DNA of 64,000 nucleotides from an uncultured Verrucomicrobiota bacterium (GCA_964570325.1 CAZMXS010000001.1:96987-160986); one strand, 5' to 3'; counted from the first letter of the stretch, positions 3,184-34,785 are shown. A program made the numbers and translations. The notes: generated by a model not told the origin, from the sequence alone.

Positions 3184-3277
3184 CTTCAATGATCCATTCC
3201 CCTCACTAAAGTTGCATGCAGCGGGAAAGTCAGAAGCGTCTGGCGGATGAAGCGGTCAAACGGCCGGGCGATGCGCC

Positions 3278-10023: not shown

Positions 10024-13000
10024 TCAGGCGTCCCACTCGATCATGAACGTGTTGATCGCTCCAGGGAGCACCTCATGCTGCCATTGGCCGGAAAAGACCT
10101 TCGGGCCCTCCATGCGGCAGGTCAAGTGGCCGGTGAAGTTGGTATAAGATACGGGTTCACCTGTGACCCATGCCGGCTGGCCGTTTCTCACTTCCAAGCC
10201 CAACCAGAACCAGCATCCTCCTTTGAAGAAGGATTCCACAAACATATTCTCCCGCAAACTATGAATGGTGAGCAGATGCCCGCCCAAATCGGCGCAGAAC
10301 CGCTGTGCATCCATCCAGGACAACATGCGGGGAATGTGTAGATAACGATGATTGTTGAATTCGACGGACAAGGCTTTCAATTTAGCCCAATCACGCGCCC
10401 GCAAGGCAAGCAGCACGGAGACCTCGCGAGCCTGCGTCTGGTAGCGAAAATCGCGGCTCCATTTCTCTCTCGCGGCCTGATATTCGCGGGTGGGAATGGA
10501 GTCGCAATCAAAGCGGAAATCTTCCGGCGGATGACGAAGAAACGGGGCCAGGCTGGTGAGCGGATTCCGTCCGCAGGACAAGGCCGCCAGTCGCATCTCT
10601 TTCAGGGGAAGAAGATCCCGGATCCGGTTGCGGTGGCAGGTCAGCACGACCAATGGCCTGCCGCGCAGCGGCTCGAGCGATTCGATTTCGTTTTCACTGC
10701 AATGCAGGACGGTCAGTTTCATGCCGCGCAGGGGGTCGAGACTCCGGATTTGACAGCCGCTGCAGTTGAGCGTGGTCAATGGCATCCCGCGCAGGGGCGC
10801 CAAATCAACCACCGGGTTATTATGAAAGATGAAGGAATTGAGCGGCATACCCGAAAGCGGTTCAAGCGAACAGACCCGGTTGGAAAAACAACAAAGGAAG
10901 TTGAGTTTCATGCCGCGAAGGGCGTCGAGGTCCGCCACCATATTGTGGGCTAAATTAAGCGAATGCAACGGCATGCCGCGCAGCGGTTCCAGATCGTGGA
11001 TCGCACAAGCCTCGCAATGGAGAAACTGAAGCGGCATGCCGCGCAGCGGTTCCAAGCTGGAAATCGGATTACCCGCGCATTTAAGCGTGGCCAGCGGCAT
11101 GCCGCGCAGCGGTTCCAAGTCGGCGATTCGGTTGCCGAAGCAGGCCAACGACCGGATCGGCATGCCGCGCAAGGGCGTCAAATCCGCTATATCCGCCTCG
11201 GATATATCCACGCTTAATCCGTCGTTTTCAAGGCAGACCCGGATGCGCCGGCCGGGCCAGGCGCGCGCGAGTTGGGTCTGCCACTCGGGCAGTTGCCGGC
11301 GAAGCTCTTCGTCGCGGCGCGCCCGATCGAGCCCCCGGATGGCCCGCTCCTTCCGATCCGCACGAAGGGAAGAGCGCAGCGTTTCTGCAAAGAGCGATCG
11401 CGCGGCCTCAATCTGCCCGTTCTGCAATTGGCGCTCGGCCAAATCCAACACATCGGCGCGCCAGGGCGGCGTGCGACGGTAGACTCGGATCCGGCGGAAG
11501 CGATAATCCGCGCCCCAGCCCAAAAATCCCAATGCGCCGCGGTTGTCCCCATGCAGCGGATCCGGGTCGGTCACGCGGATTACTTCACGTCCATTAACCA
11601 CCATTCTCAAACAAGCGCCGATCCGTTCGGCCGTAACCTGGTACGTCTGGCCCGGTGCCAGCGGAACCGCCGCTTCACTCCACAATCGCCGGTCCGCGCG
11701 CGAGACAAGGTTGATCGAATTGTCGAACGCGCCATACTCCATTTTATAGCCGCTGGACGGAATCTCCAGAATATGACCGGCACGGATCGCGCTGATGAAT
11801 ACGCCGAGTCCGTTCACACAACCGCCGACCTGCCGCGCCGTGAACTCGATACGCGCATCGCCGAACACATCCTGTTTCAGTAAGAGCACCTGGGGTTCAC
11901 CATGGCTTAAGCGCAATTCGTCTCCGGTCATTTCCAGATCGCCGCCCGCCGCTACCCAGTCGTCAAGGGCGGCGGCGGTTCCAAAGTCGGAAACGACCAC
12001 ATTTTCCCACGCCAACCCGTTTAGATAATCTTCGATGTCGCGCTGCAATTCGCCCACCGACGAATAACGGTTCGCCGGCTCCGGGGCGAGGGCTTTCATC
12101 GCGATATCAGCCAGCGGCCATGGGGCTTGGCGATCCGGGCAGTGATCCAGCGCGTAGTCATTCTCCAGCCGGGTTGTGAGCGGAGTGATCTGGCCGGAAC
12201 ATACTCGTCGCAGATAGTCCGGCAGTTCCTTCTCCTCCACCGGCAGGCGCAACGTAACCAACAAGTAGAGAATGACCCCGAGCGCGAATATGTCGGCCGG
12301 CGGCCCAACCTGGTCCGGCGGCCCGCCAATCTGTTCCGGCGCCATGAACCCGGGCGTCCCTAACAGAACTCCACTGGAAAGCGCGCCATCGAGATGGCGA
12401 GGGAAACGAGGGGGCGCATCGGCAACCGTCTCGACGCCCGAATACCATTCTTTCGCCAGGCCCCAGTCAGTCACCAATACCTCGCCGAAACTTCCTATAA
12501 GAATGTTGTCCGGTTTCAAATCGCGATGAATGATCCCTTTGGAATGCGCAAACGCGACGCCGTCGCAAACCTTCAGCAGGATATGCAGCAACCGTTCCAG
12601 CGGGTAGGTTTCGATCGTGGGGCGATCGCCGGACCGGAGGCGATTGATCACCGCCGTGAGGGTTTCTCCCTCCACCAGTTTCATGACATAGAAAAGGCGT
12701 TGTTGTGAATCGCAGCCCATTTCATAAAGAGGCATGATATGCGCATGGCCAAGCCGGGCGGTGAGTCGGGCTTCCCGAATAAAACGCGCCAAGGTCTGCT
12801 CCGGGGCGTTTGGGTTATGCGGGAGAAATTTGATCGCAACCTTCCGCTCGCACCGTTTATCCCAAGCTTCAAAAACCGTTCCCATACCGCCCTGCGCGAT
12901 CCGGCGAATAAGCTGAAAGCGCCCGCCCCCGGCCACGGCGATTACCCGCGATTCCCGCTTGCACACCGCCACCTGCCGCGGGGCAACAAAACCGGCCTCC

Positions 13001-13107
13001 CGAACCAAACAGGCCAGTTTCCGACTTGGAGCAGGAGGAATCAACCGTATCGGCCAAGATGGGCACGTGGGTTCAGTGGAGTGAATCTGATCTTTTTTTC
13101 TTTTCAA
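10024..13107 (-). CDS. Ser/Thr protein kinase fused to LamG/DUF1080-like domain, ~12 leucine-rich repeats and a C-terminal C-type lectin-like domain
   Basis: Kinase motifs GGMGTVFEA, VAIK, HRDLKPDNIL, DWGLAKE. About 22-aa repeats with consensus LEPLRGMPL. The C-terminus (WMDAQRFCADLGGHLLTIHS...WFWLGL...WVTGEP...FMIEWDA) follows the CTLD pattern. Confidence 0.85.
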   Translation of the reverse strand: MKRKKDQIHSTEPTCPSWPIRLIPPAPSRKLACLVREAGFVAPRQVAVCKRESRVIAVAGGGRFQLIRRIAQGGMGTVFEAWDKRCERKVAIKFLPHNPNAPEQTLARFIREARLTARLGHAHIMPLYEMGCDSQQRLFYVMKLVEGETLTAVINRLRSGDRPTIETYPLERLLHILLKVCDGVAFAHSKGIIHRDLKPDNILIGSFGEVLVTDWGLAKEWYSGVETVADAPPRFPRHLDGALSSGVLLGTPGFMAPEQIGGPPDQVGPPADIFALGVILYLLVTLRLPVEEKELPDYLRRVCSGQITPLTTRLENDYALDHCPDRQAPWPLADIAMKALAPEPANRYSSVGELQRDIEDYLNGLAWENVVVSDFGTAAALDDWVAAGGDLEMTGDELRLSHGEPQVLLLKQDVFGDARIEFTARQVGGCVNGLGVFISAIRAGHILEIPSSGYKMEYGAFDNSINLVSRADRRLWSEAAVPLAPGQTYQVTAERIGACLRMVVNGREVIRVTDPDPLHGDNRGALGFLGWGADYRFRRIRVYRRTPPWRADVLDLAERQLQNGQIEAARSLFAETLRSSLRADRKERAIRGLDRARRDEELRRQLPEWQTQLARAWPGRRIRVCLENDGLSVDISEADIADLTPLRGMPIRSLACFGNRIADLEPLRGMPLATLKCAGNPISSLEPLRGMPLQFLHCEACAIHDLEPLRGMPLHSLNLAHNMVADLDALRGMKLNFLCCFSNRVCSLEPLSGMPLNSFIFHNNPVVDLAPLRGMPLTTLNCSGCQIRSLDPLRGMKLTVLHCSENEIESLEPLRGRPLVVLTCHRNRIRDLLPLKEMRLAALSCGRNPLTSLAPFLRHPPEDFRFDCDSIPTREYQAAREKWSRDFRYQTQAREVSVLLALRARDWAKLKALSVEFNNHRYLHIPRMLSWMDAQRFCADLGGHLLTIHSLRENMFVESFFKGGCWFWLGLEVRNGQPAWVTGEPVSYTNFTGHLTCRMEGPKVFSGQWQHEVLPGAINTFMIEWDA
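10420..11220 (-). repeat. ~66-bp tandem DNA repeats encoding the LRR units
   Basis: Recurring CGGCATGCCGCGCAGCGGTTCCA-like cores about every 66 nt (for example near 10970, 11035, 11100, 11165). They appear as repeated MPRSGS strings in the off-frame ORF track. Confidence 0.6.
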
Positions 13108-13246: not shown

Positions 13247-14620
13247 TCAGTCCGCCTCCGGCAAGCCTTCCGCCTCAAGCCGCGCGCAATACGGGATCAG
13301 GAGCACCAGGCCGGCCAGCATCCAGAACGGCTCCGCGATACGGACGATGATGAAGCTGTTGGTAAACAGGGCATGGGTCATCATTGCCACAATACCCGCA
13401 AAAAATCCCAAGGCCGTCCCTTTCAGGAAGCCATCCTCGGCCGGGCAGGTTGCATAGGCCTGTAACGTGCCGTTGAGCAGCCGCAGGAAAATCATCAGGA
13501 ACGCCGCCAGGCCGATAATGCCGGTCTCGGCCAGCAGGCGCCAGTATTGCCCGTCAATGAAATACGTCCCGGTCACGCCGTGGCCGAAGAGCGGCTTTTT
13601 CAGCCAGGTTTGCACCGCCTCGTCATAAGAGATCACGCGCGCCGAGGCGCTGGGGTCCAGGTCCACGCCGGCCACCTGCACGTGGTACTGCGTGCCCTTC
13701 TCAAACGTGCCGGTGACCCGCCGTTCGACCTTCTCCGGGATCGCGATCAGGCCGACACCGATGGCGGCCGCCACGCCGGCGGTGGCGATCGCGACGCCGA
13801 CCCGCCGCTTGCTGATCACCATGAAGGTGACCAAGCCGGCCAGCAATGCGATATAAGAACTTCGGGAAAGGGTAAACAGGAACGGCGGGAAGGCGAACAG
13901 CGCAAGCGCCGTCAGCAAGCTGCGAACGCGCAGGCGGGGATCGTAAAGAATGATCCCGCCCAGCACACAAAAGACCAGAACCATGTAGCCGCCGAACGTG
14001 TTGGGCTCGGTATCGAACGGAGCGGTGACCCGGATGCCCTGGACAATTTGCAGATAACCGTAGGCGGCGGCGCACAAGAAGACCGCAATCGTGGTCCCGA
14101 CCAGCCGGCGAATCATCTGCGTGCTGCGCACATGGGCCAGGATCATCAAGAACAAGAAGAAGTATTCAAAGTATTTTGCGTTGTGGAACAGGCCGACATC
14201 CAGTTTCACGGTCCGATCCAGCACCCCCAGGAGCGTCGCGATGACGGAAACGGCCATGTAGATGCCGATCGCGCCCAGCACGGGCGTGCGCACGATCCCG
14301 AAACGGCTGCGCAGATAGGCGGAACGTAAGATCCAGCCCAGGCCCACGGCCACGAGCACGACGTCCTCGAGCCGGATCACCACACCGGCGGCGCCCTCGC
14401 CGGTGCCCTTGCCGGTGGCCAGGCCGGAGCCGATTTCCGGACTGAAGAGCGTCGCGATGATCACGATATAGAGCGCCTCGGTGCCGCGCAGGAAAGCAAC
14501 GCCCAGCATGAAGGCAAAGAACAGAATCCCCGCGAGGAACGGCAGGTCTACACGCGACACGTACTGGCTGAGCGCAACCGCCGCGAGGACCGCCAGCAGG
14601 ATTATGAGAATGAAACGCAT
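13247..14620 (-). CDS. O-antigen ligase/polymerase family membrane protein (Wzy/WaaL-like)
   Basis: About 10-12 predicted TM helices with a larger loop. Adjacent to Wzc/Wza homologs. Confidence 0.55.
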   Translation of the reverse strand: MRFILIILLAVLAAVALSQYVSRVDLPFLAGILFFAFMLGVAFLRGTEALYIVIIATLFSPEIGSGLATGKGTGEGAAGVVIRLEDVVLVAVGLGWILRSAYLRSRFGIVRTPVLGAIGIYMAVSVIATLLGVLDRTVKLDVGLFHNAKYFEYFFLFLMILAHVRSTQMIRRLVGTTIAVFLCAAAYGYLQIVQGIRVTAPFDTEPNTFGGYMVLVFCVLGGIILYDPRLRVRSLLTALALFAFPPFLFTLSRSSYIALLAGLVTFMVISKRRVGVAIATAGVAAAIGVGLIAIPEKVERRVTGTFEKGTQYHVQVAGVDLDPSASARVISYDEAVQTWLKKPLFGHGVTGTYFIDGQYWRLLAETGIIGLAAFLMIFLRLLNGTLQAYATCPAEDGFLKGTALGFFAGIVAMMTHALFTNSFIIVRIAEPFWMLAGLVLLIPYCARLEAEGLPEAD

Positions 14621-14711
14621 GGATTTGCCGCCCGCCCCCTAATCCCTGACTCCTGACAACTGATAACTGGCTGCCGATCAGTGCCCACTGATTACCGCCC
14701 ATCGGCCCCGG

Positions 14712-16757
14712 TCATTTCCGTCCCGGCCGGCCGTAGTAGCCGCGGTAATGCTGCAGGTTGGCGTCTTCCGCCCAGGAGGAACGGATATCGTTGAGCACGA
14801 TCCCCATGACGTTCGCGCCGCTCGTATGCAAGAGGCTGAGCGCGCGGCGCATGGATTCGCGGGCCGCCACGCCGACCTGGTACACAACGATCACGGCATC
14901 CACGACCTTTGAGATGATGACGCTATCCGGCACCGGGAGCAACGGCGGAGCATCAATCAGGATCACGTCGAACTGCTCCTTCCATTCCTTGAGCAGGGCC
15001 TCGAACTCCGGCAGGGAAAGCCATTCGGCCGGCTGGTTCGTGCGCCCGCCGGTGCTGATGAAAAACAGGTTGTCCATGCCCGGGGCGGAGGCCAGCCCCT
15101 CGCCCGCCCGCTCGCCCAGCGCGACATCGCGAAAATCCTTGAGCGCCTCGCGCCAGGTGATTTCGCCGGCGAGGATGTTGGCCAGGCCCCGCTCGCGTTC
15201 GAGGCCGAAGATCCGGTCCATTTTCGGGCGGCGCATGTTGGCGCCAACCAGCAACGTCTTCTTGCCCGCCTGCGCGAAGACCACGGCGGTGTTGGTAATC
15301 GTCGTGCTCTTACCCTCGCCCGGTCCGGCGCTGGTCACCAGGAACGTCTTCGCGCCCGACTTGTTCATCGCCAGCAGCAGATTGGTCCGGAGCATCCGGT
15401 AGGCCTCGGTCGCCGGCGCGCGCGGGCCGAACGGCACGATCAGCTCGGGCAGACGCTGGCCGGCCCGGCGGGAGCGGCGGGCAAACAGCCCGAAGAGCGC
15501 CTTCCAGACCATCGCCATCGTGGTGACGATTCGCGAATAGCGGATCCGGTCCACCCAGCCTTCGGGATGCAGGGGCACATCAATCGCGTCCGGCGAGAAA
15601 TGCGGCACTACGGTCAAAACCGGCAGGCCGAACGCGGCCTCAATATCCATCAGCGTGCGCAGGGAAGTGTCCAGGCTGTCGGCGACGAACGCCAGGACCA
15701 GGCCCAGCATCAAGCCCAGCAGGGCGCCGGCCAGCAGCGTGCGGGTGCGCGATTGCTGAATGGGGCGGCCATCGGCGCCGGGTTCAATCACCTGCACCGT
15801 CTCGCTGCGTTTCTGCGCGGCGATCTTGGCCTCCTCCAGCCGCCGGGTGAAGAACAGCCCCATCTCCTCGGAAATGGCCTTGTAGTTCTCGTAATCCTTG
15901 AGCGATGTCTGGCGCGCGAGCTCCGATTCCATGATCCGGTCAATCCGCCCGCTGATCTCGGCCATCTGGGCCTTGATACTCTTGATTTCCGGATATTCCT
16001 CGGTGTAGTTGCCGGTCGCGCGCAGATCCTGAAGGCGTATTTCGAGGGCAATCAGCCGCTCCTTGAGCAAAGTCATCTCGCCGGCCGAGTCGCCGGTGAT
16101 CATACGCGCGCCATACTTCTTCCAGAGCGCCTCTTCCTGCTCCTTCAATCCGTTCATCAGCGTGTCGCGCGAATTCTTGATGGTGTCGTACACCTCCTGC
16201 GCGTTCTCGGTCAGCGACTGGTCGTGGTGGCGGATGAAAGCGGCCACCACCGCCTGGACGCGCTGGAGGGCGGCCGCCGGCGAATTTCCGACCGCGAAAA
16301 TGTCAATCAGGTCGGTGTGCTCGACCTTGGTGGCGCGAACGGATGCCTGCAGGTTCGCGACCTCGGCGGGCGTCGCCGCCGACGGGTTCCGCAGCGCGGC
16401 CGCGGCATTGCTGATAACCACATAGCTGGTGATCTCGTACAAGTAATTCTCGATCGGGTCGCCGCTGGAGACCAGCAACTCATCAAACAGCCCGGCGACG
16501 GTGACGAGACGCTGGATCTTGATGCGCGTCCGGCTCTCGAAAACCGGCTGTTCCCGGCCCGAGTAGTAATGCGTGAAGCCCAGCGTGATCAGGGTCGTCA
16601 GGATGACGTACCACTTGTGCCGAAGCACCACCCGCAAATAGTCGCTCAACACCAATTCGTCGCGCGCCATGTCAACCTTTCCAAACCGCGCCGGCGTCCG
16701 CCACCGGGCTTGTTCAATCGCTGCGCCCCGACAGCCGGTCGTACACCCAGATGCCAT
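14712..16757 (-). CDS. polysaccharide co-polymerase / BY-tyrosine autokinase (Wzc-like)
   Basis: N-terminal TM helix plus Wzz-like coiled-coil domain, a second TM helix, a C-terminal P-loop GPGEGKST, and a Tyr-rich tail HYRGYYGRPG. Confidence 0.85.
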   Translation of the reverse strand: MASGCTTGCRGAAIEQARWRTPARFGKVDMARDELVLSDYLRVVLRHKWYVILTTLITLGFTHYYSGREQPVFESRTRIKIQRLVTVAGLFDELLVSSGDPIENYLYEITSYVVISNAAAALRNPSAATPAEVANLQASVRATKVEHTDLIDIFAVGNSPAAALQRVQAVVAAFIRHHDQSLTENAQEVYDTIKNSRDTLMNGLKEQEEALWKKYGARMITGDSAGEMTLLKERLIALEIRLQDLRATGNYTEEYPEIKSIKAQMAEISGRIDRIMESELARQTSLKDYENYKAISEEMGLFFTRRLEEAKIAAQKRSETVQVIEPGADGRPIQQSRTRTLLAGALLGLMLGLVLAFVADSLDTSLRTLMDIEAAFGLPVLTVVPHFSPDAIDVPLHPEGWVDRIRYSRIVTTMAMVWKALFGLFARRSRRAGQRLPELIVPFGPRAPATEAYRMLRTNLLLAMNKSGAKTFLVTSAGPGEGKSTTITNTAVVFAQAGKKTLLVGANMRRPKMDRIFGLERERGLANILAGEITWREALKDFRDVALGERAGEGLASAPGMDNLFFISTGGRTNQPAEWLSLPEFEALLKEWKEQFDVILIDAPPLLPVPDSVIISKVVDAVIVVYQVGVAARESMRRALSLLHTSGANVMGIVLNDIRSSWAEDANLQHYRGYYGRPGRK

Positions 16758-17541
16758 CGCGGATTGACACCACTGGAGTCAGCAGCGTCGTGATGAAATC
16801 AGCAAGAGAGTAAACCAACCGGGTATCCACAAACAGGGCATCCCGCGGCTCGAGCAGCAAATTTTTGCTCATGTCCCGGCCGGTAAAAATGTCCATCATC
16901 TGGATCCGCAACACCTGGGGCTGCCCGCTGTCGCCGCGCACAAGGAACACATTGGGCTGCGCGCCACGCGCCAGCCCGCCGGCCAGGGTGACGGCATCGC
17001 GCACGCGCATCCCGCCGGAGAGCGGGAACAGCCCCGGATTGGATACGCGGCCCATAACCAGCACATGCTTGCCGAGTTCGACGGAGGCCTGCCCCGCAAA
17101 GCCCTCAACCCGCGCGCGCTCCAGGTTAATCACCACGCTGGCCTCGCTGAGAATCTTGGACAAGGCGGCCTGTAATTCTGCAGTCAACTGCGGAGGGGTT
17201 TTATTCACGATTGCCCAATTGCCGAGGTTGGGCAGGAAAATCGAGCCTGACTCTGGAATGGTGGTCTTGAATGGATAACCGGACAACTGGCTCATCCGGT
17301 CGCGCAACCAGACTTCAATCGTGATCTTGTCGCCGGCATGAATCGCCAGATCCTGCCCCGGCGTAACCGGGACGCCGCCTTCCGGCGCCGACTCCTTCAG
17401 GATCGTCTGCCCCTGCTGCGCGATCAACTCCGCATCGGCGGCGCGATCGGCGGGCGCAACGGCTTTCGGCTTCGGCGCGGCGCAACCGACCGCCAGGCAC
17501 AGCACCCCCAACCATCCCGCGTATGTCCGAAAGTGCTTCAT
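16714..17541 (-). CDS. polysaccharide export outer-membrane lipoprotein (Wza-like, Poly_export + SLBB)
   Basis: Lipoprotein signal with lipobox LAVGC. PGDKITIEVW-type Poly_export motif. Overlaps the Wzc gene by 44 nt. Confidence 0.75.
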   Translation of the reverse strand: MKHFRTYAGWLGVLCLAVGCAAPKPKAVAPADRAADAELIAQQGQTILKESAPEGGVPVTPGQDLAIHAGDKITIEVWLRDRMSQLSGYPFKTTIPESGSIFLPNLGNWAIVNKTPPQLTAELQAALSKILSEASVVINLERARVEGFAGQASVELGKHVLVMGRVSNPGLFPLSGGMRVRDAVTLAGGLARGAQPNVFLVRGDSGQPQVLRIQMMDIFTGRDMSKNLLLEPRDALFVDTRLVYSLADFITTLLTPVVSIRDGIWVYDRLSGRSD

Positions 17542-17570
17542 GGAATCCGTATTGATTGGAACCGCCCGCG

Positions 17571-18716
17571 TCAGGAAACCTTCCGGACCACGGACAGCAC
17601 CACTTCCTCCTTCAAATCAATCAGTTTGGCGATGTCCGGGTGATTGCCCGAACCATCCACCACCACCTTCAGCACCGGCCGCAACGGCAGACCCGCGTTT
17701 TGCTGAACCACCTCGCAAATCGCGTGGTTGTTCAGCTCAACAATCGTACCCACCGGATAGAAACCGCTGAACGAGATGACCCGCTTGAGCAGGTCATAGT
17801 CAAACGCCTTCCGGTACTCCGCGAGGATGTCAAGCAGGTCGCGTGCCTTCTCCCGGCCGGCATCCGCCTTGGATCGGGGGGATTCGAGAAACAGCGAAAC
17901 CGCCAGCAGGTTGGCCACCCCCAGCAACTGGCTCCAGCGCGGGAACTGCTTGCCGGCGATCGCGCCGGGAAACCCCTTGCCGTCCAACCGCTCGTGATGC
18001 TGGGCGATCATCTCAACCACCGGCGCCGGGGCGCCGATCTTGCGGGCGAGCTCGACCCCCTTCATAATATGCTCCGCCAGCGCCGGATTGGCCTCATCGC
18101 GCACCCGGGCCAAGCCATCCTTCATCAACATGAAACCCATATCGTGCAGCAGGCCGGCCGCCCCGAGATCATGCACGGGGAATGGCAACCCTCGCTCGTC
18201 GGCCGCCAAGTCCATCGCCAGCAAAGCCGTATTGATGCTGTGCGCCACCAGGTACTGCAAAGGGTCATCCTCCATTGTACCGGGCCTGATCTCGAAGTTG
18301 ATCACCGCGGCCGAGGTCAGTTGCTGGGCATCGCCGGCAATATGCTTGGCCATCTCCCACAATCCATATTGGTCAGCCGACGGATCGCGGATCTTGTTGA
18401 AAAGGAAGGTCAGCTTGGCCTTCACCTGCTCGGGGGTGATCGCCACCTCGGGCGGCAGCTCAATCCCCAACTCCAACGCCGCCTTGTAAATCGCGGACAT
18501 CCGCTCGCCTTTGTCGGGCGTCACATCCGACACCCAGTTTTTGGGAGCAGCGGCCTCCGGCGTGGACGCAGGGGGCGCCTCAACAGGCGAGGCGACCCCC
18601 GGTGTGGAGCCGGTGGCAGTCGGCGGCGGCACCGAAGCGCCGTTGCGGCCCTTCCCCGATGTTCCCGCATCCTTGATCCAATCGCTCAACCTCATAGGAG
18701 ACGACCTCCCACACAT
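17571..18716 (-). CDS. HD-GYP domain protein (putative c-di-GMP phosphodiesterase)
   Basis: HD motif LLHDMGF and HHERLDGKGFP (matches HHExxDGxGYP). Confidence 0.75.
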   Translation of the reverse strand: MCGRSSPMRLSDWIKDAGTSGKGRNGASVPPPTATGSTPGVASPVEAPPASTPEAAAPKNWVSDVTPDKGERMSAIYKAALELGIELPPEVAITPEQVKAKLTFLFNKIRDPSADQYGLWEMAKHIAGDAQQLTSAAVINFEIRPGTMEDDPLQYLVAHSINTALLAMDLAADERGLPFPVHDLGAAGLLHDMGFMLMKDGLARVRDEANPALAEHIMKGVELARKIGAPAPVVEMIAQHHERLDGKGFPGAIAGKQFPRWSQLLGVANLLAVSLFLESPRSKADAGREKARDLLDILAEYRKAFDYDLLKRVISFSGFYPVGTIVELNNHAICEVVQQNAGLPLRPVLKVVVDGSGNHPDIAKLIDLKEEVVLSVVRKVS

Positions 18717-18750
18717 GCTATCTGGAAATGAAATAGGCGGGGGCTCATGG

Positions 18751-19122
18751 TCAGGCTGACAGTAACCGCTGAATGCTCGCCGTGCTGAAATCCGCCTTGT
18801 TCAGAATGGACTTGGCGCGCTGCAGCAGTTTGAGCTCCTCATCCTCCGAAAGCTTGGCGCCGGTAATAATCACGACATCGGCCTTGGCGTGCAGCGGATA
18901 ATTGCGGATCATATCCAGCAAATCCCACCCGGTGATGTCGGCCATGACCAGGTCCACCAACAAGACATCAAACGGCTCCTGGGCCTCCTTCAGTTTGGCA
19001 ATCGCTTCCTGTCCGCTGCGGGCAAACACCGGGATACTGCCGAACCGTTCCACGATCCGGCTGATGACGGTGCCCACCATCGGCTCGTCGTCAACAATCA
19101 GAACTCTTTTTTTCTGTGCCAT
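18751..19122 (-). CDS. stand-alone response regulator receiver domain (CheY-like)
   Basis: VLIVDDEP, phospho-acceptor context DVLLVDLVM, and a conserved Lys context. Confidence 0.85.
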   Translation of the reverse strand: MAQKKRVLIVDDEPMVGTVISRIVERFGSIPVFARSGQEAIAKLKEAQEPFDVLLVDLVMADITGWDLLDMIRNYPLHAKADVVIITGAKLSEDEELKLLQRAKSILNKADFSTASIQRLLSA

Positions 19123-19238
19123 GGGTCACGCTCAAACCATTTACAATTTGCGATTTGCATTCTGCGATCGAATGTCATAGCCAAACGTCAATTGCCAAAT
19201 AGGGGGCAAAATTCCAAGATATTTTCAGCATCCGTCTT

Positions 19239-19298
19239 TTCCAAGCGAACCTGCGTCATTCGCGCGGCTCCGCGGAGACGCGCCGGTTCGCCTTGGAA
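19239..19298. other. extended imperfect hairpin in the 242-bp intergenic region between the ATPase and receiver genes
   Basis: Outer arms TTCCAAGCGAACC / GGTTCGCCTTGGAA enclose the inner stem GCGTC...GACGC and a CCGCGG palindrome. No adjacent U-tract on the transcribed (minus) strand. Confidence 0.4.
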
Positions 19299-19364
19299 AG
19301 CACAGGTTCCGTTTCCAGTTTCAGGTTTCAACTTTCACCATGCCGCCTTCGCTTATCCTCTCGC

Positions 19365-20165
19365 TCATAACATCCGTTCGGCCATGGCCTCGGCGACGTC
19401 ATTGGCGCTGATGACTGCCTGGGTTTTCAAATAACCGGCCAACAGGCACAAGTCCGCGATGGCGTTAATTTCCCGCGGATTACCCTTGCTCAACCGCGCC
19501 ACCTCCACCACGGCGCCGGGTTCAAAAATATCAATGCGGCCGCCGGCCTTCTCCAGCCGGAAGCGCATGTAGTCCTGCACCTCGTCCACCGCCAGCGGCG
19601 GCACATGGAAGCGAAAACCAATACGCTGAACCATTTGTGGAATCGCGCGCAGGCGCTCGTTCACTTCGGTCTGCCCGCTTAAAATCAAGGTCATCAGGTA
19701 ATGGCCCTGCGGATGAAAATTAAGCAGCAGCCGCAATTCCTCCAGCACGGACGCATCCGGGATCAACTGGGCCTCGTCCACCAACATGGCCACATGCCGT
19801 CCGGAAGCGGCGTGGCGCTGAATGGCGTTCTGGAAGGCGTGCAGGACATCGTACTTCGAGCGCGAGTTGATCTCGTCGCCGAGTTGGAAGGACAGCTCCC
19901 GGATCAAATCTATGGCATCCATTCGCGGGTTGGTGACGCTGACCACCTTGTAGCTGGCGGGCGGCAGGCGGCTGAGCGCGGTTTGGCACAGCAAAGTCTT
20001 GCCGGAACCATAATCGCCGGTTAACAGGGTGATCGCCTTGCGGGTTTCGATCGCCATCAACAGGCGCGCGATGCCTTCGCGGTGTCCACGCGACTCGTAG
20101 AAGAAGCGAACATCCGGGGCGTTCTCAAACGGCAACTCGGAAAAATTCCAATACGCGTTGTACAT
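19365..20165 (-). CDS. ExeA/GspA-like AAA ATPase (AAA_22)
   Basis: Walker A GDYGSGKT and Walker B MLVDEAQ. This family is encoded in T2SS-assembly and PEP-CTERM/EPS loci. Confidence 0.7.
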   Translation of the reverse strand: MYNAYWNFSELPFENAPDVRFFYESRGHREGIARLLMAIETRKAITLLTGDYGSGKTLLCQTALSRLPPASYKVVSVTNPRMDAIDLIRELSFQLGDEINSRSKYDVLHAFQNAIQRHAASGRHVAMLVDEAQLIPDASVLEELRLLLNFHPQGHYLMTLILSGQTEVNERLRAIPQMVQRIGFRFHVPPLAVDEVQDYMRFRLEKAGGRIDIFEPGAVVEVARLSKGNPREINAIADLCLLAGYLKTQAVISANDVAEAMAERML

Positions 20166-20451
20166 AATAGACGCTCAATACTTGCCAGCGCCCCGCCGCA
20201 AACCGTGATCCTTGCCGCAAAGCCAGCCGTCACAATGGCTCAACCGGTTCCAGCCGTCACCCCAATTTACAACCTCACACCGCATATAATACGTTGATGG
20301 TTGATTTTTTTCAAACGCTTTACACAACGAATTTTTTATCATTCCAGCCCCGCCCAATATGGGGCATGCCTTGACACATCCTATTGAGCAGGGGTATCTG
20401 TTATTAAAATAATGGCCTGACATACGTCACGCCGGACGTCAAGGTATTTAT
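20166..20451. promoter_or_regulatory. divergent promoter region with short direct repeats
   Basis: AT-rich. GCCGCAAA occurs at 20195 and 20214. CCAGCCGTCAC occurs at 20224 and 20250. ACGTCA occurs at 20425 and 20436. A TTGACA hexamer lies at 20371-20376. Confidence 0.4.
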
Positions 20452-23400
20452 ATGTTTCAGCCTTGGCTCCCGGGAGGGTTTGTTATGCGAACAATGCACT
20501 TTGGAAGCAAGCGGTCACGCGACGGAAGGCAGATCATCAGCGGCATGGGATTATCCATCCTGCTCATTGCCGGTCCGGCTTTTGGCACGGGCTGGATTTC
20601 GCCCAATGCCAATAACAACCCCACCCGTTGGGATAATGAGACTTTGGCGCGCGATAGCAACGTGATCACTTATGCCAGTTGCACACCGAGTAAAACCGGC
20701 TGGGGCCAGGCACTAGAACTTTACTGTGACCCCATCAAGTGCCGGCGCATCCGCGTGAACGCTGATTATCAGCCGGGTGTCAGCTCGGTTCGCCTGGAAA
20801 TCAGGCTGTATCCCAGCGGCACCTGGCAAAACATTTATGAGGGCTCATTCAGCAACCAGGACTGGCAGATCGTCACTTTCAACACCACGAACATCAGCGG
20901 GGCGCGCTGGACCTGGAATTTCACGGACACCATCACTTTCTGGCTCTATGAGCTGGAGTTTTTCGAGGAGGGCGCGACGATCACCGTGCCCGCCTGCGAA
21001 ACGCTGGACGCCAGCTCGGTCGAGGGAACCACGGTCATCCTGCACGGCAACCTGACCGATGATGGCGGCGACCTGTGCCAGTGGCGCATGCAATACGGCC
21101 TGACTTCGAGCTACTCCACCAACACGGAGTGGGTTGGCAACGAGGTGGCGCCAACCCATTTCAGCAAGCTGCTGGTGGATCTGCCGACCAACACCACCTA
21201 CCATTTTCGCGCCCAGGTGCAAAACAGCGCGGGCATCGCCAGCGGCGAGGACAAGGAGTTCACCACCGGCCCGCCGGCCACCGGCTGGATTTCGCCGTCC
21301 GGCTCCAGCAACGACACCGGCAACTGGGAATACCGGGAACGGGCTTACGACGACAACGTGGCAACGGTAGCCCGTTGCCGGCATCCCATGGGCAACCCGG
21401 TCTGGTCGCCCTACATCTACCTGACCCATTCGATTATGATCTGCGACGGAATCGAGTTCTACGCGCGCCGCACCGCGGAGTTCGACATGGGTGAGGTCGG
21501 CGTTCTGCGCAACGGCGCCTGGACCAACGTGTTCAGCGCCAACTTCACCAACCATGTCTGGACCGAGGCCTGGTTCCCGAAAGGCACGGTCACTCAGGCC
21601 CGCGCGCGCTTCCGGCTGACGTCCACCAGCTACGGCCTGGACTACGAACTCAATGAATTCAAGTTCCACCGGCTCGTGGACACGATCATCTCCGGCCGCT
21701 TCAACGGCAATACGCCCGTTACGCTCGTCATCAACGGCGTGACCAACAACACGTTCACGAATTTCACCACCAACGTGTTCAGCTTCGCCGTGTCGGTCGG
21801 CGCCGGCAGCAAGATCTTGATCTTCTACAACGACAACAATCCGGCCACGAACAACGGCGCCGTGGTGACGCTCGCCACCGGCTACAACATGACCGACCTG
21901 GACCTGACGGACGGCGAGCTCATCGTCCGCAACGACTACGGGAGCGGCCTGAGCAACGCGGACCTGATTCAGGCCACCACCGGCGATGCGGATATTCCCT
22001 ACAGCTACAGCGGAACATCCATCATCGTCTCCAATGCCGCCCTCAACGTGCCGGCCGGCCACACCTATGCGCCCGGCACCAACTCGCTCACGCTCTACAG
22101 CAATCTGGTCTACAACGGCACGCTCAACAATACATCCGGCACGGTGACTTTCGCCGGGAACACCCGCATCACCGGCAAGGCCGACGCGTCCTTCTACAAC
22201 GTGACGGTCGCCGGCACGCTTTACGCGCCGACGGGAACGATGTCCGTCGCCGGCAACTGGGTCAATAACGGCTCGTTCTCCAACAACAGCGGCACGGTGA
22301 ACTTCAACGGCAACACCACCATCTCCGGCACGCGGACATCCCTCTTCCACAACGTCACCATCTCCGGCAACCTGGGTGCGCCGGCCGTGATGGGCGTCGC
22401 CGGCAACTGGGTCAATAACGGCGCGTTCTCCAACAACCTCGGCCAGGTAATCTTCAACGGCAACACCACCATCAGCGGGTCCAGCGACACCACCTTCGAC
22501 GACCTGACGATCGCCGCCGGGGCGACGCTGACCGGCCCATCCGGCACGCTGACCGTCAACGGCAACTGGAACAATGCGGGCGGCGCCTATAACCACAATA
22601 ACGGCACGGTCGTCATCGGCGGCACAACCGCCAGCACCAACTCGGGCAACACCACCTTCTACAACCTCGCCTGCACCACCCCGGGCCGGGCGATCTATTT
22701 CACCCCGGGTTCCACCCAGACGGTCGCCGGCACGTTCACGATGGCCGGCGACAGCACCTCCCAGATCCTGCTGCGTTCGACGGTGGCGGGCAGCAAATGG
22801 AAGCTGGACCTGCCCAATACCGACCAGTCCGTGACCTATGTCAATGTGCGCGACTCGGACGCTTTGAACCACACGGTCACCGTCTCCGGTGGCACGGACA
22901 GCGGCAACAACAACGCCAACTGGATTTTCGCCTCGAGCCGCTACTGGGTCGGCGGGACCGGCAATTGGTCGGATACCAACCACTGGTCGCTGACTTCCGG
23001 CGGCCCCGGCGGCGCGTCCGTCCCGACCACCAACCAGCTCGCTATCTTCAACTCCGCCTCGGGCACCGGCACGGCCACGATCAACGTCCCCGCGAACATC
23101 AAGGGCTTGAGCATTCTCGCCGGCACGACGATGACCATCGCCGAAGGGACAAACTTGTTCACAGTCGGCACGGCCGGCTGGGAACAGAAGGGCGGCACCT
23201 ACACCGGCGGCAGCGGCACGCTGACCGTCAACGGCACGTTCCTGCTGACCAACGGCACGTTCACGGCGCCGTCCGGCCTCTTCTCCCTGAGCGGCAACTT
23301 CACCCGCCGGGGCGGCACCTATAACCCCAATGGCGGTACGATCGCGTTCGACGGCTCGACGCTGATCACCCAGACCGTCACCAACAGTTTCGCAAACGTG

Positions 23401-26400
23401 ATCATCAACGGTGAATTGACCGCCCCGGCCTACCTGATCATCAACAGCAATTTTGTCAACAACGGCACATTCAACGCCGGCGCCGGCATCGTGCGCTTCG
23501 CCAGCAACACCGTCGTCAGCGGCGCCAGCACGAGCGTGTTCAACAACCTGCTGATCACCGGGCAATTCACGTCCCATAGCAACTGGCTCAGCATTGCCAA
23601 CAGTCTGACCAACAACGGCACGTTCAACGCCAATGGCGGGACGGTCGCGTTCACCGGCTGGACCATGCTCGGCGGCAACAGCACCTCGCAGTTCAACAAC
23701 GTGGTGATCAACGGCTGGCTGACGCCCGGCGCGACGCGACCGATAATGGTCGCGGGGGACTGGATCAACAACGGCAACTTCTACCACAACGACGGGTCCG
23801 TGATCTTCAACGGGGCCAGCGCCATCAGCGGCACGAACGTCACGGTCTTCAATAATTTCACCATCGCGGGCGCGGTCACCGCGCCCGCCGGCGAGATGCG
23901 CGTCGCCGGCAACTGGGTCAACAACGGAGCGTTCAACGCGAACGGCGGCATGGTCACGTTCAACGGCCAGACCACGATCAGCGGCGCCAGTTCCAACCAG
24001 TTCAACCACGTCACCCTGTGGGGCAACCTGACGGCCCCGACCGGAACGATCTATGTCGCGGGCAACTGGATCAACGACGGATCGTTCACCCATAATAATG
24101 GCACGGTCTTCTTCAACGGGACCAGCCTGATCGGCGGTGGCGTGGTCACAACGTTTAAAAACGTGATCATCGGCGCGGACGCCGCCGTGACCGGCCCCGC
24201 CTCCACCCTGAACGTCGCCGGCAACTGGAACGGCAGCGCCGGCTATTATTACAACAACGGCGGCCGCGTGATCCTGCCCGGCACGACCACACAATGGGTC
24301 TCCACCGGCGGCGCCTGGCTCAACGGCACCAACAACTGGAAGAACAACTGGGGCACCCTGATCGTATCCAACGGCTCCGCCGGCGGCGTCTATTTCACCG
24401 ACGGCTTCAAGGCGAACTACTTCATTGACACCGTGCCCGGCTCAACCCTCTATTTCCGAACGCAGGAGGAAGTCACCAACGTCTATGAGTTCGGCGCCGT
24501 CGGCGGGTTGACCTTGCAGGGTTCGTCATCCCAGCGGATCATCCTGCGCCGCTACGGCGGCTCCGGCACAAACCAGTGGGAATTGACGCCCACCGCCGCG
24601 AGCTTTAACTGGACAGTCAATTATGTGGACGTTCAGAACTCGGTCAACTCGGGATCCAGCGCCATTTACCCGACCAATTCGCTGGACTCCGGCAATACGG
24701 AGAATTGGTTCGTGCCCACGCTCGTCGAGTTCGGCTGGCTCTACGCCATCGGCCGCGACGGCGCGGTTACCGTGCGCTGGAAGACGGAGTCCGAGGTCAA
24801 CAACGCCGGCTTCAACGTGTACCGGGCGCCGGCCGCCGACGGGCCGTACGCGCGACTCAACCCGACGCTGATCCGCGGGCTGGGCAACTCGGTCATGGGC
24901 GGGGAATACAAGTTCGAGGACGGCGCAGCGACCAACGGCGCGACCTATTATTATCTGGTCGAAAGCGTCGAGTATGATGGCCGCGCGCAATTGTTCGGGC
25001 CGTCCGCGGCGCAGCCCGGACGCGACAGCGACGGCGACGGCATGACCGACGACTGGGAGGATTTCTACGGGCTGGACAAGGGGCTGGACGACGCGGGCGG
25101 CAACCCCGACGGCGACGGCTGGACCAACCTCCAGGAGTTCCAGCGCGACACCAACCCGTACCAGGATGAAGGCGAAACGGGCGCAGGCGGGGGCGGCGGC
25201 CCGCCGACCGCCGGCGGGGCGGACCTCTACAAGCTGACGGTTGACGCGGACGGCATCTACCGGCTCGACGCTGCGTACCTCTCGACCTATACCACCAACC
25301 TCGCCGCTTGGGTCGTCAGCAATATCCACATTTTCTGCCAGGGGGCGGCCATCCCACTGCTTTATCACGACGAGGACGACGCCGCCTTCGGCACTAATGA
25401 CTATGTTGAGTTTTTTGGCCGCGGCCTGAACACGCGCTTCTCCGGCGATAATATCTACTGGCTCTGCCCGTGGACCAATGCCGGCCCCATCATGCCCGCT
25501 GTCGGCAACGGCAGCGGAACCCTGCAAACGACCGCGCCGTTCACCGAACACTTCGAAGAAAACGCGTACTACGAACCGGAATTGCCGGACGAATATCCGG
25601 ATGACGACCACTGGTTCTTCTACGACAGCCTCTGGGTCATCGGCCCGGAAACCAATACGCTCGACTTCTTCCCGACGTTGTCCGGCGTCGCCGGCGGCAG
25701 TGCCACCGGGCTGTTGACGGTGGCCTTGCGCGGCCTGAACGAGGGGACCAATACCGTCCGAGTATGGCTGAATGGCGCGGCTTGCCCCGACGCGGTCTGG
25801 ACCGGTCTGCACCAGTATGCCTATGCGGCGCCGATCAGCCAGGCCGGCCTGCTCGAAGGCACAAACACGGTGACGCTTTCGCTGATCGGCGACGAGGAAA
25901 CATTCAGCCGCGATGTGCTGATCAACTGGTTTGAAATCGCCTACACGCGCGACCTCACGGCGGCAAACGGCGCCCTGCTCTTCACCAATCGGGCCGGCGG
26001 CGCGGCGGCCTGGCAGGTCGGCGGCTTCGCCGCCGCCGACGTACGGGTACTGCGCGTGGGCGACACCGGCGATGTCGCCGTCGCGGTGGTGACCAACGTC
26101 ACCGTCAGCGGCGCGGGCCCCTACGCGGCGGTTTTCGCCGACAACGCGCCGGCGGGCGCGGCTTATGCCTTGGCCGCCGCCAACGCCCTTCGCCGCCCGG
26201 CCGCCTGCGTTGCAGAAGAATCGTCGAACCTGCGCAGCGCAACCAACCAGGCCGACTACCTCATCATCGCCTACGAGCCGTTCCGCGAGACACTCGCCCC
26301 GTTGATTGCCGACCGTGCCGCGCGCGGCCTGAACGTCAAAGTCGTCGGCTTGACCGATGTGTACGACGATTTCAACTTCGGGATTCGGAGTCCGTACGCC

Positions 26401-28521: not shown

Positions 28522-28531
28522 CGGGCAATCC

Positions 28532-29365
28532 ATGCCGGAGTCCGCATCCAAACCGATTCAGGAGCTGCCGACCCGGCTGGCCGGGTTCCCTTTCACGTTA
28601 CAATTTTATGATCCTGCGCTGAAATCACAGGCGGCCCGGCAGGTGCCCTTGGCGCGGCACGCCGGCGCGCGCGATTCAGTCACGCTGATGGTGCTTCCCC
28701 CAACGCGCGGCGCCGCGCGGGCACGGCGCCGGAGCATGACGGTTCGACTGGATGGCGTCGGAGGTTATTCCGGCGAGTTTGATCCGGTTACCCGCCGCGG
28801 TTGGATCCGCGTAGCGGAAGATCACCCGCTGGAGGCCCTCCTGAACGCCCTGCGCCGCATCGTGACCCTGCTCGTTTACCGGGAAGGCGGCGCCGTCATC
28901 CACGGCGCGGGTGTGCAGCGCGGGCGGCGGCTTTTCATCTTCTTCGGGCCCAGCGGCGCAGGCAAAACCACGGTCTGCGAGCTGTCGCCGGAAGCCAAGA
29001 TTCTCAACGACGATCTGATGGCTGTGCGCCGGGTGAACGGCCGAGCGCGGGTGTGGCCCATGCCCTGCCGCCGCCCGGCCCCGGCCCGACCGCCCGCGGG
29101 CGACGATGGCCGGGAGCCCGCGCTCCTGATTGAATTGCGGCAAGCCCGCAAGACCTACCTGCAACGCCTGCCGCCCGCGCTCGCGCTGGCGCGGGTGCTG
29201 GCCCTGCCGGCCGAACCGAGCAACCCGCAAGCGACGCTGGAGATTCTGGAGCGCCTGGTCCGCCAAACCCCCTGTTACCGGCTGTATTTTACCCGGACTC
29301 CGGATTTCTGGGGCCCGATCGAGTCCTTGTTGGCCAACCCACGGAGACAAGCCGATGTCCGGTGA
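28532..29365 (+). CDS. HPr kinase/phosphorylase-related P-loop kinase
   Basis: IHGAGVQRGRRLFIFFGPSGAGKTT...ILNDDLMAV resembles the HprK C-terminal domain (P-loop followed by an LVADD-like motif). Starts 10 nt after the giant gene stop. Confidence 0.65.
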   Translation: MPESASKPIQELPTRLAGFPFTLQFYDPALKSQAARQVPLARHAGARDSVTLMVLPPTRGAARARRRSMTVRLDGVGGYSGEFDPVTRRGWIRVAEDHPLEALLNALRRIVTLLVYREGGAVIHGAGVQRGRRLFIFFGPSGAGKTTVCELSPEAKILNDDLMAVRRVNGRARVWPMPCRRPAPARPPAGDDGREPALLIELRQARKTYLQRLPPALALARVLALPAEPSNPQATLEILERLVRQTPCYRLYFTRTPDFWGPIESLLANPRRQADVR

Positions 29366-30824: not shown

Positions 30825-30844
30825 CCCGGCGCGCGGGCCGCGCC

Positions 30845-31972: not shown

Positions 31973-32076
31973 ATGATTGAAAACCAGTCCGGATTTCATT
32001 TACTCATTCTCCCCTCCGCGGGGTGTCGAGGACAAAGAAGAGTCGAAGGACGAACAAGTGAAAGAGTGAGAGCGGT

Positions 32077-32988: not shown

Positions 32989-33026
32989 CCCATACGGCGA
33001 ACAATGGTAACGCGCCACATCCGGCC

Positions 33027-33884: not shown

Positions 33885-33901
33885 TTATGCCTCCTTGGTA
33901 T

Positions 33902-34732: not shown

Positions 34733-34785
34733 TGCGCGGCGCGATTGCAAACCAACTTTGCCGCGGCGCATTGGAGCAACGACGC

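Follow-up and report, generated by a model that had tools for sequence, protein, structure and literature searches.

A conserved ATPase and HD-GYP-fold gene pair at the head of a Wza-Wzc-Wzy polysaccharide export cassette in an uncultured Verrucomicrobiota bacterium

We analyzed a stretch of 64,000 nucleotides (nt) from an uncultured Verrucomicrobiota bacterium (GCA_964570325.1 CAZMXS010000001.1:96987-160986; hereafter the window, in whose coordinates positions are given), in which an earlier note, made from the sequence alone, had described a polysaccharide export operon with embedded regulatory genes at positions 13247-20165. Open reading frame (ORF) calls combined with Pfam and NCBIfam scans recovered all six co-directional genes of that description on the minus strand, and their domain content agreed with the names that had been given to them. 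In the order of transcription (ATPase, REC, HD, Wza, Wzc, Wzy), the genes are as follows (protein lengths in amino acids, aa).

19365-20165, minus strand: short, cytoplasmic AAA_22 ATPase of the ExeA/GspA family, 266 aa (AAA_22, 80.9 bits)
18751-19122, minus strand: stand-alone receiver (REC), 123 aa (Response_reg, 54 bits; cutoff 30)
17571-18695 (longest ORF to 18716), minus strand: divergent HD-GYP-fold metalloprotein (HD protein), 374 aa (HD_5, 48 bits; HD, 45 bits)
16714-17541, minus strand: Wza-type OPX lipoprotein, 275 aa (Poly_export, 45 bits; SLBB_2, 41 bits; both above cutoffs)
14712-16670 (longest ORF to 16757), minus strand: Wzc-like PCP-2a protein with a bacterial tyrosine kinase (BY-kinase) domain, 652 aa (TIGR01007)
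13247-14620, minus strand: membrane protein of the Wzy/O-antigen-ligase family, putative polymerase, 457 aa (Wzy_C, 44 bits; cutoff 31.7)

The last three of these support the previous description of the block as a unit for polysaccharide polymerization and export. Proteins identical to those of the block occur on several JGI metagenome contigs (the longest 192 kb), where Wzc and the HD protein are publicly called at 652 and 374 aa, respectively. In an alignment of orthologues, all Wzc proteins begin at the equivalent of M30 (MA[RK][ED]EL..SDY), and a Shine-Dalgarno-like GGAAAGG lies upstream of the ATG at 16670. Since the public calls, the orthologue starts and this site all place the Wzc start at 16670, the Wza and Wzc genes are separated by 43 nt. 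The 44-nt overlap that had been claimed for them requires the first ATG, at 16757, and is an artefact of taking the longest ORF. The HD protein starts at M8 (18695) with a conserved MRLSD N-terminus. The other spacers are 242 nt (ATPase-REC), 55 nt (REC-HD), 29 nt (HD-Wza) and 91 nt (Wzc-Wzy).

Relatives of the cassette were gathered through a homologue search with the HD protein, which belongs to a small orthologous family, through context look-ups and through a scan of GTDB species genomes; gene order was mapped by tblastn. About a dozen metagenome-assembled genomes (MAGs) of Kiritimatiellia, Lentisphaerota and Verrucomicrobiota were found, whose proteins are 30-62% identical to those of the window. 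The complete colinear order ATPase-REC-HD-Wza-Wzc-Wzy was present in five loci (L007, L012, L013, L018 and L019), and four further copies were partial and cut at contig ends (L009, L014, L017 and L020). REC and HD were adjacent in 11 loci, and the Wzy-like protein showed 45-62% identity to the orthologues that close the cassette. Because the same gene order, far beyond chance, recurs across about a dozen MAGs, we conclude that the block is a functional unit. Further, synteny across about 12 species shows that the regulators belong to the export unit, into which they had been said to be built.

In some relatives the conserved cluster extends upstream of the ATPase gene into genes of repeat-unit synthesis, which domain scans also detected in the window.

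38841-39500, minus strand: PIG-L deacetylase
37718-38785, minus strand: DegT aminotransferase
36404-37702, minus strand: WecA/MraY-family priming phosphoglycosyl transferase (GT4)

The four genes PIG-L-DegT-GT4-ATPase are contiguous in L007 and L012, as are GT4 and ATPase in L013, L018 and L020. The trio of the window has the same strand and order as in these relatives but lies about 16 kb (20452-36335) from the ATPase gene; we interpret it (36404-39500) as the displaced front end of the ancestral cluster. At the other end of the cassette, a gene for a Ser/Thr kinase with leucine-rich repeats and a lectin domain (10024-13107) was considered as a member and rejected, as it is not conserved beside Wzy in the relatives.

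The pairing of the ATPase with the HD protein is not confined to this clade. Among distant relatives of the ATPase (about 40-45% identity), an HD_5 gene directly followed the ATPase gene in all five that were looked up, often with a 4-nt gap or an overlap. A Ca. Scalindua locus reads ATPase-HD-Wza-Wzc-Wzy-x-Wzx-GT (x, an intervening gene; GT, glycosyltransferase), one JGI contig carries ATPase-HD together with a divergent Wza-Wzc-Wzy-DegT set, and the pair also occurs in Ca. Handelsmanbacteria and in two large genomes; an Omnitrophota contig holds HD-Wza-Wzc-Wzy. We scanned metagenome contigs with an alignment of the distant ATPases and mapped 80 loci with hidden Markov models, 53 of which could be evaluated (900 nt or more of sequence beyond the ATPase gene on its downstream side). 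The two genes were adjacent in 36 of the 53, and an HD gene was present somewhere in the locus in 42, with the following arrangements.

ATPase then HD, same strand: 31 of 53 loci
HD then ATPase, same strand: 4 of 53 loci
ATPase and HD convergent: 1 of 53 loci
HD elsewhere within the locus: 6 of 53 loci
No HD in the locus: 11 of 53 loci

A REC gene between the two was found in no mapped locus outside the clade of the window. As ATPase and HD are widely adjacent and are parted by REC in this clade only, REC alone is an insertion. Thus, the earlier note, which took both REC and HD to have been inserted between the export genes and the ATPase gene, was right about REC, a clade-specific insertion, and not about HD, which belongs with the ATPase. 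We conclude that ATPase-HD is an ancestral two-gene module, older and wider than the clade of the window; literature searches turned up no description of it.

The module also occurs away from export genes, as in three loci without Wzc nearby (L092, L094 and L095). Radical-SAM (rSAM), PqqD, ScmC and NTP_transf_5 genes recur beside ATPase-HD in L092, L094, L097, L139, L143 and L147, and loci of this rSAM/PqqD type sometimes carry a KAP_NTPase-FGE-sulfatase gene upstream. Given these recurrent neighbors in distant loci, the pair may serve more than polysaccharide export.

Two-component genes recur beside the module as well. L140 contains a HisKA/HATPase kinase, a stand-alone REC, ATPase and HD in that order, and in L148 a REC-PAS-PAS protein immediately precedes ATPase and HD. 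In L161 a CheA-like hybrid kinase lies about 3.5 kb upstream of ATPase-HD; after a gap of roughly 1 kb comes a REC-domain protein, which stands one gene upstream of the pair and is separated from it by a protein of 315 aa without a Pfam match. These gene neighborhoods support phosphorelay control as a recurrent theme around ATPase-HD. Phosphorelay control and cyclic di-GMP (c-di-GMP) control had both been proposed for the operon; the former agrees with these loci, and the c-di-GMP specificity of the latter is insecure, as described below.

The REC protein of the window has a complete phospho-acceptor set (D11, D12, D57, T87 and K109) that is kept in 11 of 11 orthologues, which bears out its earlier designation as a genuine stand-alone receiver. 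As all five catalytic positions are conserved, it should be phosphorylatable. Its best NCBIfam match, EpsW (NF041866), scored 46 bits against a cutoff of 200 and indicates resemblance only. An orphan PAS-HATPase kinase is encoded elsewhere in the window, at 47067-48227.

The ATPase contains a Walker A motif (GDYGSGK56T) and a Walker B motif (VD130E131AQ); Walker A, DEAQ and the N-terminal PF..PD..FF motif are kept in 10 orthologues. More than 60 sequence clusters at 50-59% identity to it, all of about 265 aa, are named GspA, ExeA family or AAA ATPase. The protein consists of the ATPase domain only; neither a transmembrane segment nor a peptidoglycan-binding domain was found in it. Because it has neither part, it cannot act directly on peptidoglycan as ExeA does, and it is soluble and cytoplasmic. 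Its full-length alignment with TIGR03015 (1-263 versus 1-265 of 269) gave 185 bits, below the cutoff of 324.5, and no other NCBIfam model came near this score. The comparison of TIGR03015 with GspA that had been recommended thus places the protein with the short, TIGR03015-like type and not with the long ExeA that carries a peptidoglycan-binding domain. By the curated threshold it is not a member of TIGR03015, and by architecture and context it is not the GspA of a type II secretion system (T2SS).

These scores bear on the possibility that the block is an ordinary XrtA/PEP-CTERM exopolysaccharide (EPS) locus, with the exosortase and its PEP-CTERM substrates encoded elsewhere in the genome. The best or near-best NCBIfam models of four cassette proteins are indeed those of XrtA families (TIGR03015, TIGR03027, TIGR03007/TIGR03018 and TIGR03097). 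However, all scores are far below the cutoffs (185/324.5, 68/180, 56/279, 102/231 and 25/188), and the published description of XrtA loci includes neither HD nor REC genes (PMC1569441). Pfam and NCBIfam scans of every large ORF and a search of all C-termini with a regular expression detected no exosortase or PEP-CTERM tail in the 64 kb of the window, as had been noted before, and the scans found no PrsK, PrsR or PrsT there. Nor did Pfam listings of the genes at five related loci, L007-L010 and L093, contain any of these. We therefore regard an XrtA locus as very unlikely.

The MRLSD peptide of the HD protein leads through a disordered Pro/Ala linker into a helical domain; the HD-GYP domain comes next, and a beta domain of five strands forms the C-terminus. 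An AlphaFold2 model built from a 64-sequence alignment (mean pLDDT 79.5) was compared with the Protein Data Bank (PDB) by Foldseek; all of the top ten matches and 14 of the top 20 were HD-GYP proteins, with Bd1817 first, followed by DvhD, PA4781 and PmGH. A profile search over 1.84 billion representatives gave about 27 close family members above 278 bits and a related class of 550 at E<1e-30. An N-terminal peptide of the form M(V)[RK][LMFI][ST]D[ILFWY] was present in 13 of 29 family members, 40 of 124 class members and 2 of 112 generic HD-GYP matches; by way of pure suggestion, it might dock on the ATPase. We also looked for fusions of REC to HD within the family and saw none: three members (P0003, P0241 and P0243) have N-terminal extensions that match no Pfam family or are of low complexity, and HD_5/HD was the sole domain match of the longer members P0241 and P0243.

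A census of the active site compared 29 members of the cassette family with the next 124 members of the class, in PmGH numbering. The motif residues of the window protein are H152, H184-D185, H209 and H233-H234, with the signature HHERLDGKGFP.

H189, H221-D222, H250 and H276-H277 equivalents: kept in 28-29 of 29 family members; mostly kept in the next class
HDxGK lysine: never Lys in the family; almost always Met or Leu in the next class (Lys in 4); window HDMGF, F188
GYP tyrosine: Phe in 16 and Tyr in 10 family members; Tyr in 116 of the next class; window Phe
D305 equivalent: Asn in 16, Glu in 9 and Asp in 3 family members; Asp in 104 of the next class; window N262
D308 equivalent: Glu in 28 family members; Glu in 91 and Asp in 15 of the next class; window A265

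Further, the KPxKLTxxE/KPGxL lid is missing from the cassette family, which has a deletion of 4-7 residues there, and so is the substrate loop with R314 and K317 (THxRPYR/TSxRxYR); both are kept in the next class. PmGH loses its activity when a His/Asp ligand, K225, D183 or D308 is changed to alanine; D305A or E185A leaves it less active, and mutants in the GYP motif (including Y285A), R314 and K317 are largely active (PMC4159591).

Two simpler arguments were dropped. The loss of the HDxGK lysine does not prove inactivity, as the neighboring class (124 representatives) likewise has Met or Leu there. Nor does GFP in place of GYP mark a dead protein: PA4781 has GFP, and PmGH Y285A is active. A second stand-alone HD_5 protein of the window (58856-59710, plus strand, 284 aa) reads HDVGF and HHHERFDGTGFP, and keeps the D305 and D308 equivalents (ADMFD), unlike the HD protein of the cassette. 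HDxGF and GFP may be typical of the lineage.

The earlier note had held that absence of the metal-binding residues would speak against its c-di-GMP phosphodiesterase. The result was mixed: six of the eight metal ligands of PmGH are kept, and those at the E185 position (non-acidic) and the D305 position (Asn) are lost. A non-acidic residue at E185 is also a feature of the known bimetal Y/F subgroup. Since the six ligands are almost invariant (28-29 of 29 representatives), the dimetal centre appears to be under selection, and the protein probably carries out hydrolysis. Specificity for c-di-GMP cannot be assumed from the sequence, because the set of substrate contacts is so altered.

If the protein were nevertheless a bona fide c-di-GMP-specific HD-GYP phosphodiesterase, the cassette would contain a split RpfG, in which phosphorylated REC activates the enzyme and a local drop in c-di-GMP regulates export. 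The HD_5 match, the HHExxDGxG[FY]P signature, the HD-GYP fold and the six conserved ligands are those expected of such an enzyme, and the adjacency of REC and HD in the 11 loci agrees with a split receiver. PA4781, deposited as a cyclic di-GMP phosphodiesterase HD-GYP domain, likewise reads GFP; PmGH mutants with alanine in the GYP motif are active and D305A has residual activity (PMC4159591). Further, the window encodes a GspE with an MshEN domain in addition to the second HD_5 protein, so that c-di-GMP signalling is probably present in the organism. However, the protein has lost or substituted the lysine, the tyrosine, the residues of the arginine loop and the lid, and F188 and A265 occupy the positions at which K225A and D308A abolish PmGH activity. 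Moreover, the ancestral partner of HD is the ATPase and not REC, and no c-di-GMP effector could be identified in the cassette. Thus, of the c-di-GMP phosphodiesterase described before, the fold and the six His/Asp ligands stand, and D305, the lysine, the tyrosine, the lid and the Arg/Lys loop speak against it. We consider a split RpfG possible, if somewhat doubtful.

The same residues raise the question of whether the protein is an enzyme for c-di-GMP at all, or whether, like DvhD or Bd1817, it is a sensor of a nucleotide or metal, or an adaptor, that passes a conformational signal on to Wzc, to the ATPase or to both; phosphorylated REC may then have become its main input in this clade. Bd1817, the best structural match, is an unconventional HD-GYP protein, and the nearest large class still has the lid, D305 and the substrate loop that the cassette family has specifically lost. 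DvhD, with Asn at the D305 equivalent like the window protein, is a non-catalytic c-di-GMP receptor in which the lysine (K582), the GYP tyrosine and an arginine bind phosphodiesters (PMC13090378). It has, however, lost ligands (HD to SQ and HH to MN; PMC13090378), as known non-catalytic HD-GYP proteins do, whereas the six ligands kept in 28-29 of 29 family members point to selection for a metal centre. Further, c-di-GMP is contacted by the lysine and tyrosine in the structures of both PmGH and DvhD, and these canonical contacts are also missing here, so that a receptor role is no better supported than catalysis. A sensor or adaptor is in our view unlikely.

Wzc scored 140.5 bits with TIGR01007, above the cutoff of 108, and aligns with the structures of CapB, BceF, Etk, VpsO and Wzc in the PDB. 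It keeps Walker A (GEGK454S), Walker B (D573) and a C-terminal tyrosine cluster (Y642/Y645/Y646; HYRGYYG), all conserved in orthologues. Its Walker A' motif, LLVG476AN478MR, reads G-A-N instead of D-x-D; [GC]-x-N is present in 8 of 9 Wzc orthologues, and only L019 keeps E-A-D. The same G-x-N variant was found in six distant loci linked to ATPase-HD (L110, L117, L120, L122, L125 and L131). The second aspartate of Walker A' has been proposed to position the substrate tyrosine, D-to-A and D-to-N mutants at this motif show lost or reduced kinase activity, and D569N in A. baumannii makes more high-molecular-weight capsule (PMC9800525). Pfam listings of the window and related loci contained no low-molecular-weight protein tyrosine phosphatase (LMW-PTP), Wzb or PHP phosphatase gene in any cassette copy.

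This gap could be filled if the HD protein were the missing phosphatase, a metal-dependent one acting on the Wzc tyrosine cluster or on phosphorylated REC. Its gene always immediately precedes wza-wzc, in the neighborhood that wzb occupies in wza-wzb-wzc loci; the tyrosine cluster is conserved, and the protein has lost nucleotide contacts while keeping the metal site. Yet ATPase-HD pairs also occur in the loci without Wzc nearby, and the degenerate Walker A' suggests that there is little phosphotyrosine to remove. Further, we know of no HD-GYP-fold protein that is a protein phosphatase. We judge this explanation highly improbable.

Wza carries the lipobox LAVGC, followed by PES/Poly_export and a single SLBB domain, and ends in a hydrophobic stretch of about 30 aa that is conserved; its best NCBIfam match, TIGR03027, scored 67.7 bits (cutoff 180). 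The AlphaFold2 model, based on a 3-sequence alignment (the homologue search gave 2 matches), had a pLDDT of 40 and was unusable. Short OPX proteins cross the outer membrane with a C-terminal amphipathic helix or else need a beta-barrel partner (PMC9601211), and the cassette includes no gene for a beta-barrel.

The ATPase-REC spacer (19123-19364) is unusually long, as orthologous loci have about 0-90 nt there, and may serve for processing or as an internal promoter. It contains a hairpin, and a promoter candidate lies in the 286 nt between the ATPase gene and its divergent upstream neighbor.

19236-19300, minus strand: GC-rich hairpin with 20-nt arms (80% complementary) and an inner palindrome
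20286-20314, minus strand: sigma-70-like promoter candidate, TTGAAA-17-TATTAT (10 of 12 hexamer matches)

The hairpin is the only one of its kind in the window and is not followed by a U-tract; processing, attenuation and protein binding are possible roles for it. The whole 242-nt spacer folds no better than shuffled sequences (z = -0.39), and no riboswitch or known RNA was detected in or near the operon, including this spacer (no Rfam match at E<=1). In a scan for promoters and terminators the number of sites was not above shuffled expectation, and 20286-20314 stays a candidate only. An 82-aa Cys-rich ORF in the divergent promoter region (20175-20423, minus strand) matches no family, is not called on the public contigs and is probably spurious.

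From the gene identities, synteny, residue conservation and fold, we think it fairly probable that the block makes up the half of a Wzx/Wzy-type surface-polysaccharide pathway that assembles and exports the polymer, with a built-in cytoplasmic control module, in a bacterium of Kiritimatiellia/Lentisphaerota type from the Planctomycetes-Verrucomicrobia-Chlamydiae (PVC) superphylum. By the functions of their families, the WecA-like transferase, DegT and PIG-L proteins would make an amino-sugar repeat unit on undecaprenyl phosphate, the Wzy-like protein would polymerize such units, and the Wzc-like co-polymerase and the Wza lipoprotein would move the polymer out. An unlinked histidine kinase would phosphorylate REC at D57, and phosphorylated REC, jointly with the ATPase, would switch the HD protein. 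The dimetal His/Asp centre of the latter would hydrolyze a signalling nucleotide, for which c-di-GMP or its product pGpG are the default candidates, and its output would set whether the Wzc/Wza machine polymerizes and exports. As Walker A' of Wzc is degenerate and a phosphatase gene is lacking, the ATPase-REC-HD module may replace the usual Wzc/Wzb phosphotyrosine cycle.

Several points weigh against this scheme. REC is missing from L010 and the ATPase from L015, and in L016 no export genes lie within 10 kb of ATPase-REC-HD; therefore, parts of the cassette can function apart. The cassette contains no GGDEF or c-di-GMP receptor gene, and the altered residues of the HD protein (the lysine, D305, D308, the GYP tyrosine, lid and loop) argue against c-di-GMP as the substrate. 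The conserved tyrosine cluster of Wzc argues that some kinase cycle persists, and the 242-nt spacer with its hairpin could divide the block into two transcripts. The contacts between proteins, the substrate and the direction of control are deduced. As to the L010 variant itself, it has two ExeA-like ATPase genes (1243-3824), the second of which encodes 565 aa with a long coiled-coil N-terminal extension, and it is flanked by a PAS protein upstream and an asparagine synthase gene downstream.

A broader reading, tentative and in our estimate rather unlikely, joins these lines. The ATPase and the MRLSD-tagged HD protein would form a broad, unrecognised signalling-output module, spread over the PVC superphylum, Omnitrophota, Handelsmanbacteria and others, that gates Wzx/Wzy export and perhaps also a radical-SAM/PqqD peptide system downstream of His-Asp phosphorelays. 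The HD protein of the Kiritimatiellia/Lentisphaerota clade would have shed its cyclic-dinucleotide contacts while a receiver was recruited alongside, so that the input was swapped from a nucleotide to phosphorylation, a swap that may also replace the Wzc/Wzb phosphotyrosine cycle.

The component families and the type of pathway are already known. The ATPase and HD-GYP-fold pair attached to Wza-Wzc-Wzy genes, the clade-specific insertion of REC, the coordinated divergence of the HD protein and the naturally degenerate Walker A' in a phosphatase-free cassette appear to be undescribed. Post-translational control of the c-di-GMP type is well described for synthase-dependent exopolysaccharides (cellulose, alginate, Pel and poly-N-acetylglucosamine), and the tyrosine-phosphorylation cycle of Wzc and Wzb is the textbook regulator of Wzx/Wzy-dependent machines, for which, to our knowledge, control of the c-di-GMP type is hardly described. 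The ATPase-HD pair, the degenerate Walker A' and the lack of a phosphatase together give a testable hypothesis of an alternative control circuit, and genomes of uncultivated PVC bacteria, Omnitrophota and Handelsmanbacteria commonly encode the pair. A role for the small "PEP-CTERM-type/ExeA-like" ATPases of EPS loci would follow. In annotation, the label c-di-GMP phosphodiesterase should not be given to such HD proteins by default, nor the label T2SS GspA to such ATPases.

Other genes of the window lie around the cassette. Divergent from the ATPase gene, a giant protein of about 2,680 aa (20452-28521, plus strand; public start 20485) contains a gingipain-like Peptidase_C25 domain (253 bits), Big_5 and a TSP3 repeat match, with Asp-rich repeats in its C-terminal 200 residues and no PEP-CTERM tail. 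Together with other genes, among them a radical-SAM/PqqD set just beyond it that is similar to the genes beside ATPase-HD in distant loci, it is part of the roughly 16 kb between the cassette and the PIG-L/DegT/WecA-like genes.

28532-29365, plus strand: ScmC-like
29355-29645, plus strand: PqqD
29620-30663, plus strand: radical SAM/SPASM
30761-31972, plus strand: NTP_transf_5

Two paralogues of about 1,030-1,060 aa (10024-13107 and 55112-58291, both minus strand) combine a Ser/Thr kinase, leucine-rich repeats and a C-type lectin domain; the former is the gene directly downstream of Wzy on the same strand. A cluster resembling type II secretion or type IV pilus genes (49488-53773, plus strand) lies 30 kb from the cassette and includes the following.

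49488-49985, plus strand: pseudopilin with an N_methyl motif
51713-53773, plus strand: GspE/PilB-type ATPase with an MshEN domain

For the MshEN domain, binding of c-di-GMP is known from other systems.

Among known systems, the wza-wzb-wzc and wzy genes of the E. coli group 1 capsule and colanic acid resemble the cassette in their co-directional OPX lipoprotein, PCP-2a BY-kinase with a tyrosine cluster, and Wzy-family polymerase. In contrast to them, the cassette lacks the Wzb phosphatase, its Wzc reads G-A-N and not D-x-D in Walker A', its Wza has only 275 aa and one SLBB domain, and ATPase-REC-HD heads the operon. The EPS locus of Myxococcus xanthus likewise contains a stand-alone receiver (EpsW) within a Wzx/Wzy-type cluster, although the REC protein of the cassette is not an EpsW equivalog (46 versus 200 bits); we know of no ATPase-HD pair in that locus.

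XrtA/PEP-CTERM EPS loci have four kinds of protein in common with the cassette, including a short ExeA-like ATPase of about 265 aa with GxxGxGKT and DEAQ. They differ in that the cassette has chain-length determinant and kinase fused, has HD and REC added, and scores below the cutoffs of their models. ExeA/GspA of the T2SS and MshM of the MSHA pilus have a homologous AAA_22 domain and the N-terminal PF..PD..FF motif; unlike ExeA/GspA, the ATPase of the cassette has no transmembrane segment, periplasmic peptidoglycan-binding domain, ExeB or secretin partner.

Proteins of the RpfG type (Xanthomonas RpfG, PA4781 and TM0186) also place a receiver and an HD-GYP-fold domain side by side and have a link to exopolysaccharide, and PA4781 has in addition the GFP variant in common with the HD protein of the cassette. 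Here, however, REC and HD are separate genes with a 55-nt spacer and no N-terminal REC fusion, and the HD protein has its own N-terminal peptide, helical domain and C-terminal beta domain and the ATPase as its main partner. Bd1817 (3TM8), the nearest fold, also lacks the GYP tyrosine. DvhD (9RBZ/9RC0) resembles the HD protein in the Asn at the D305 equivalent; it is a membrane receptor that has lost the HD and HH ligands, whereas the HD protein of the cassette is soluble and keeps six ligands.

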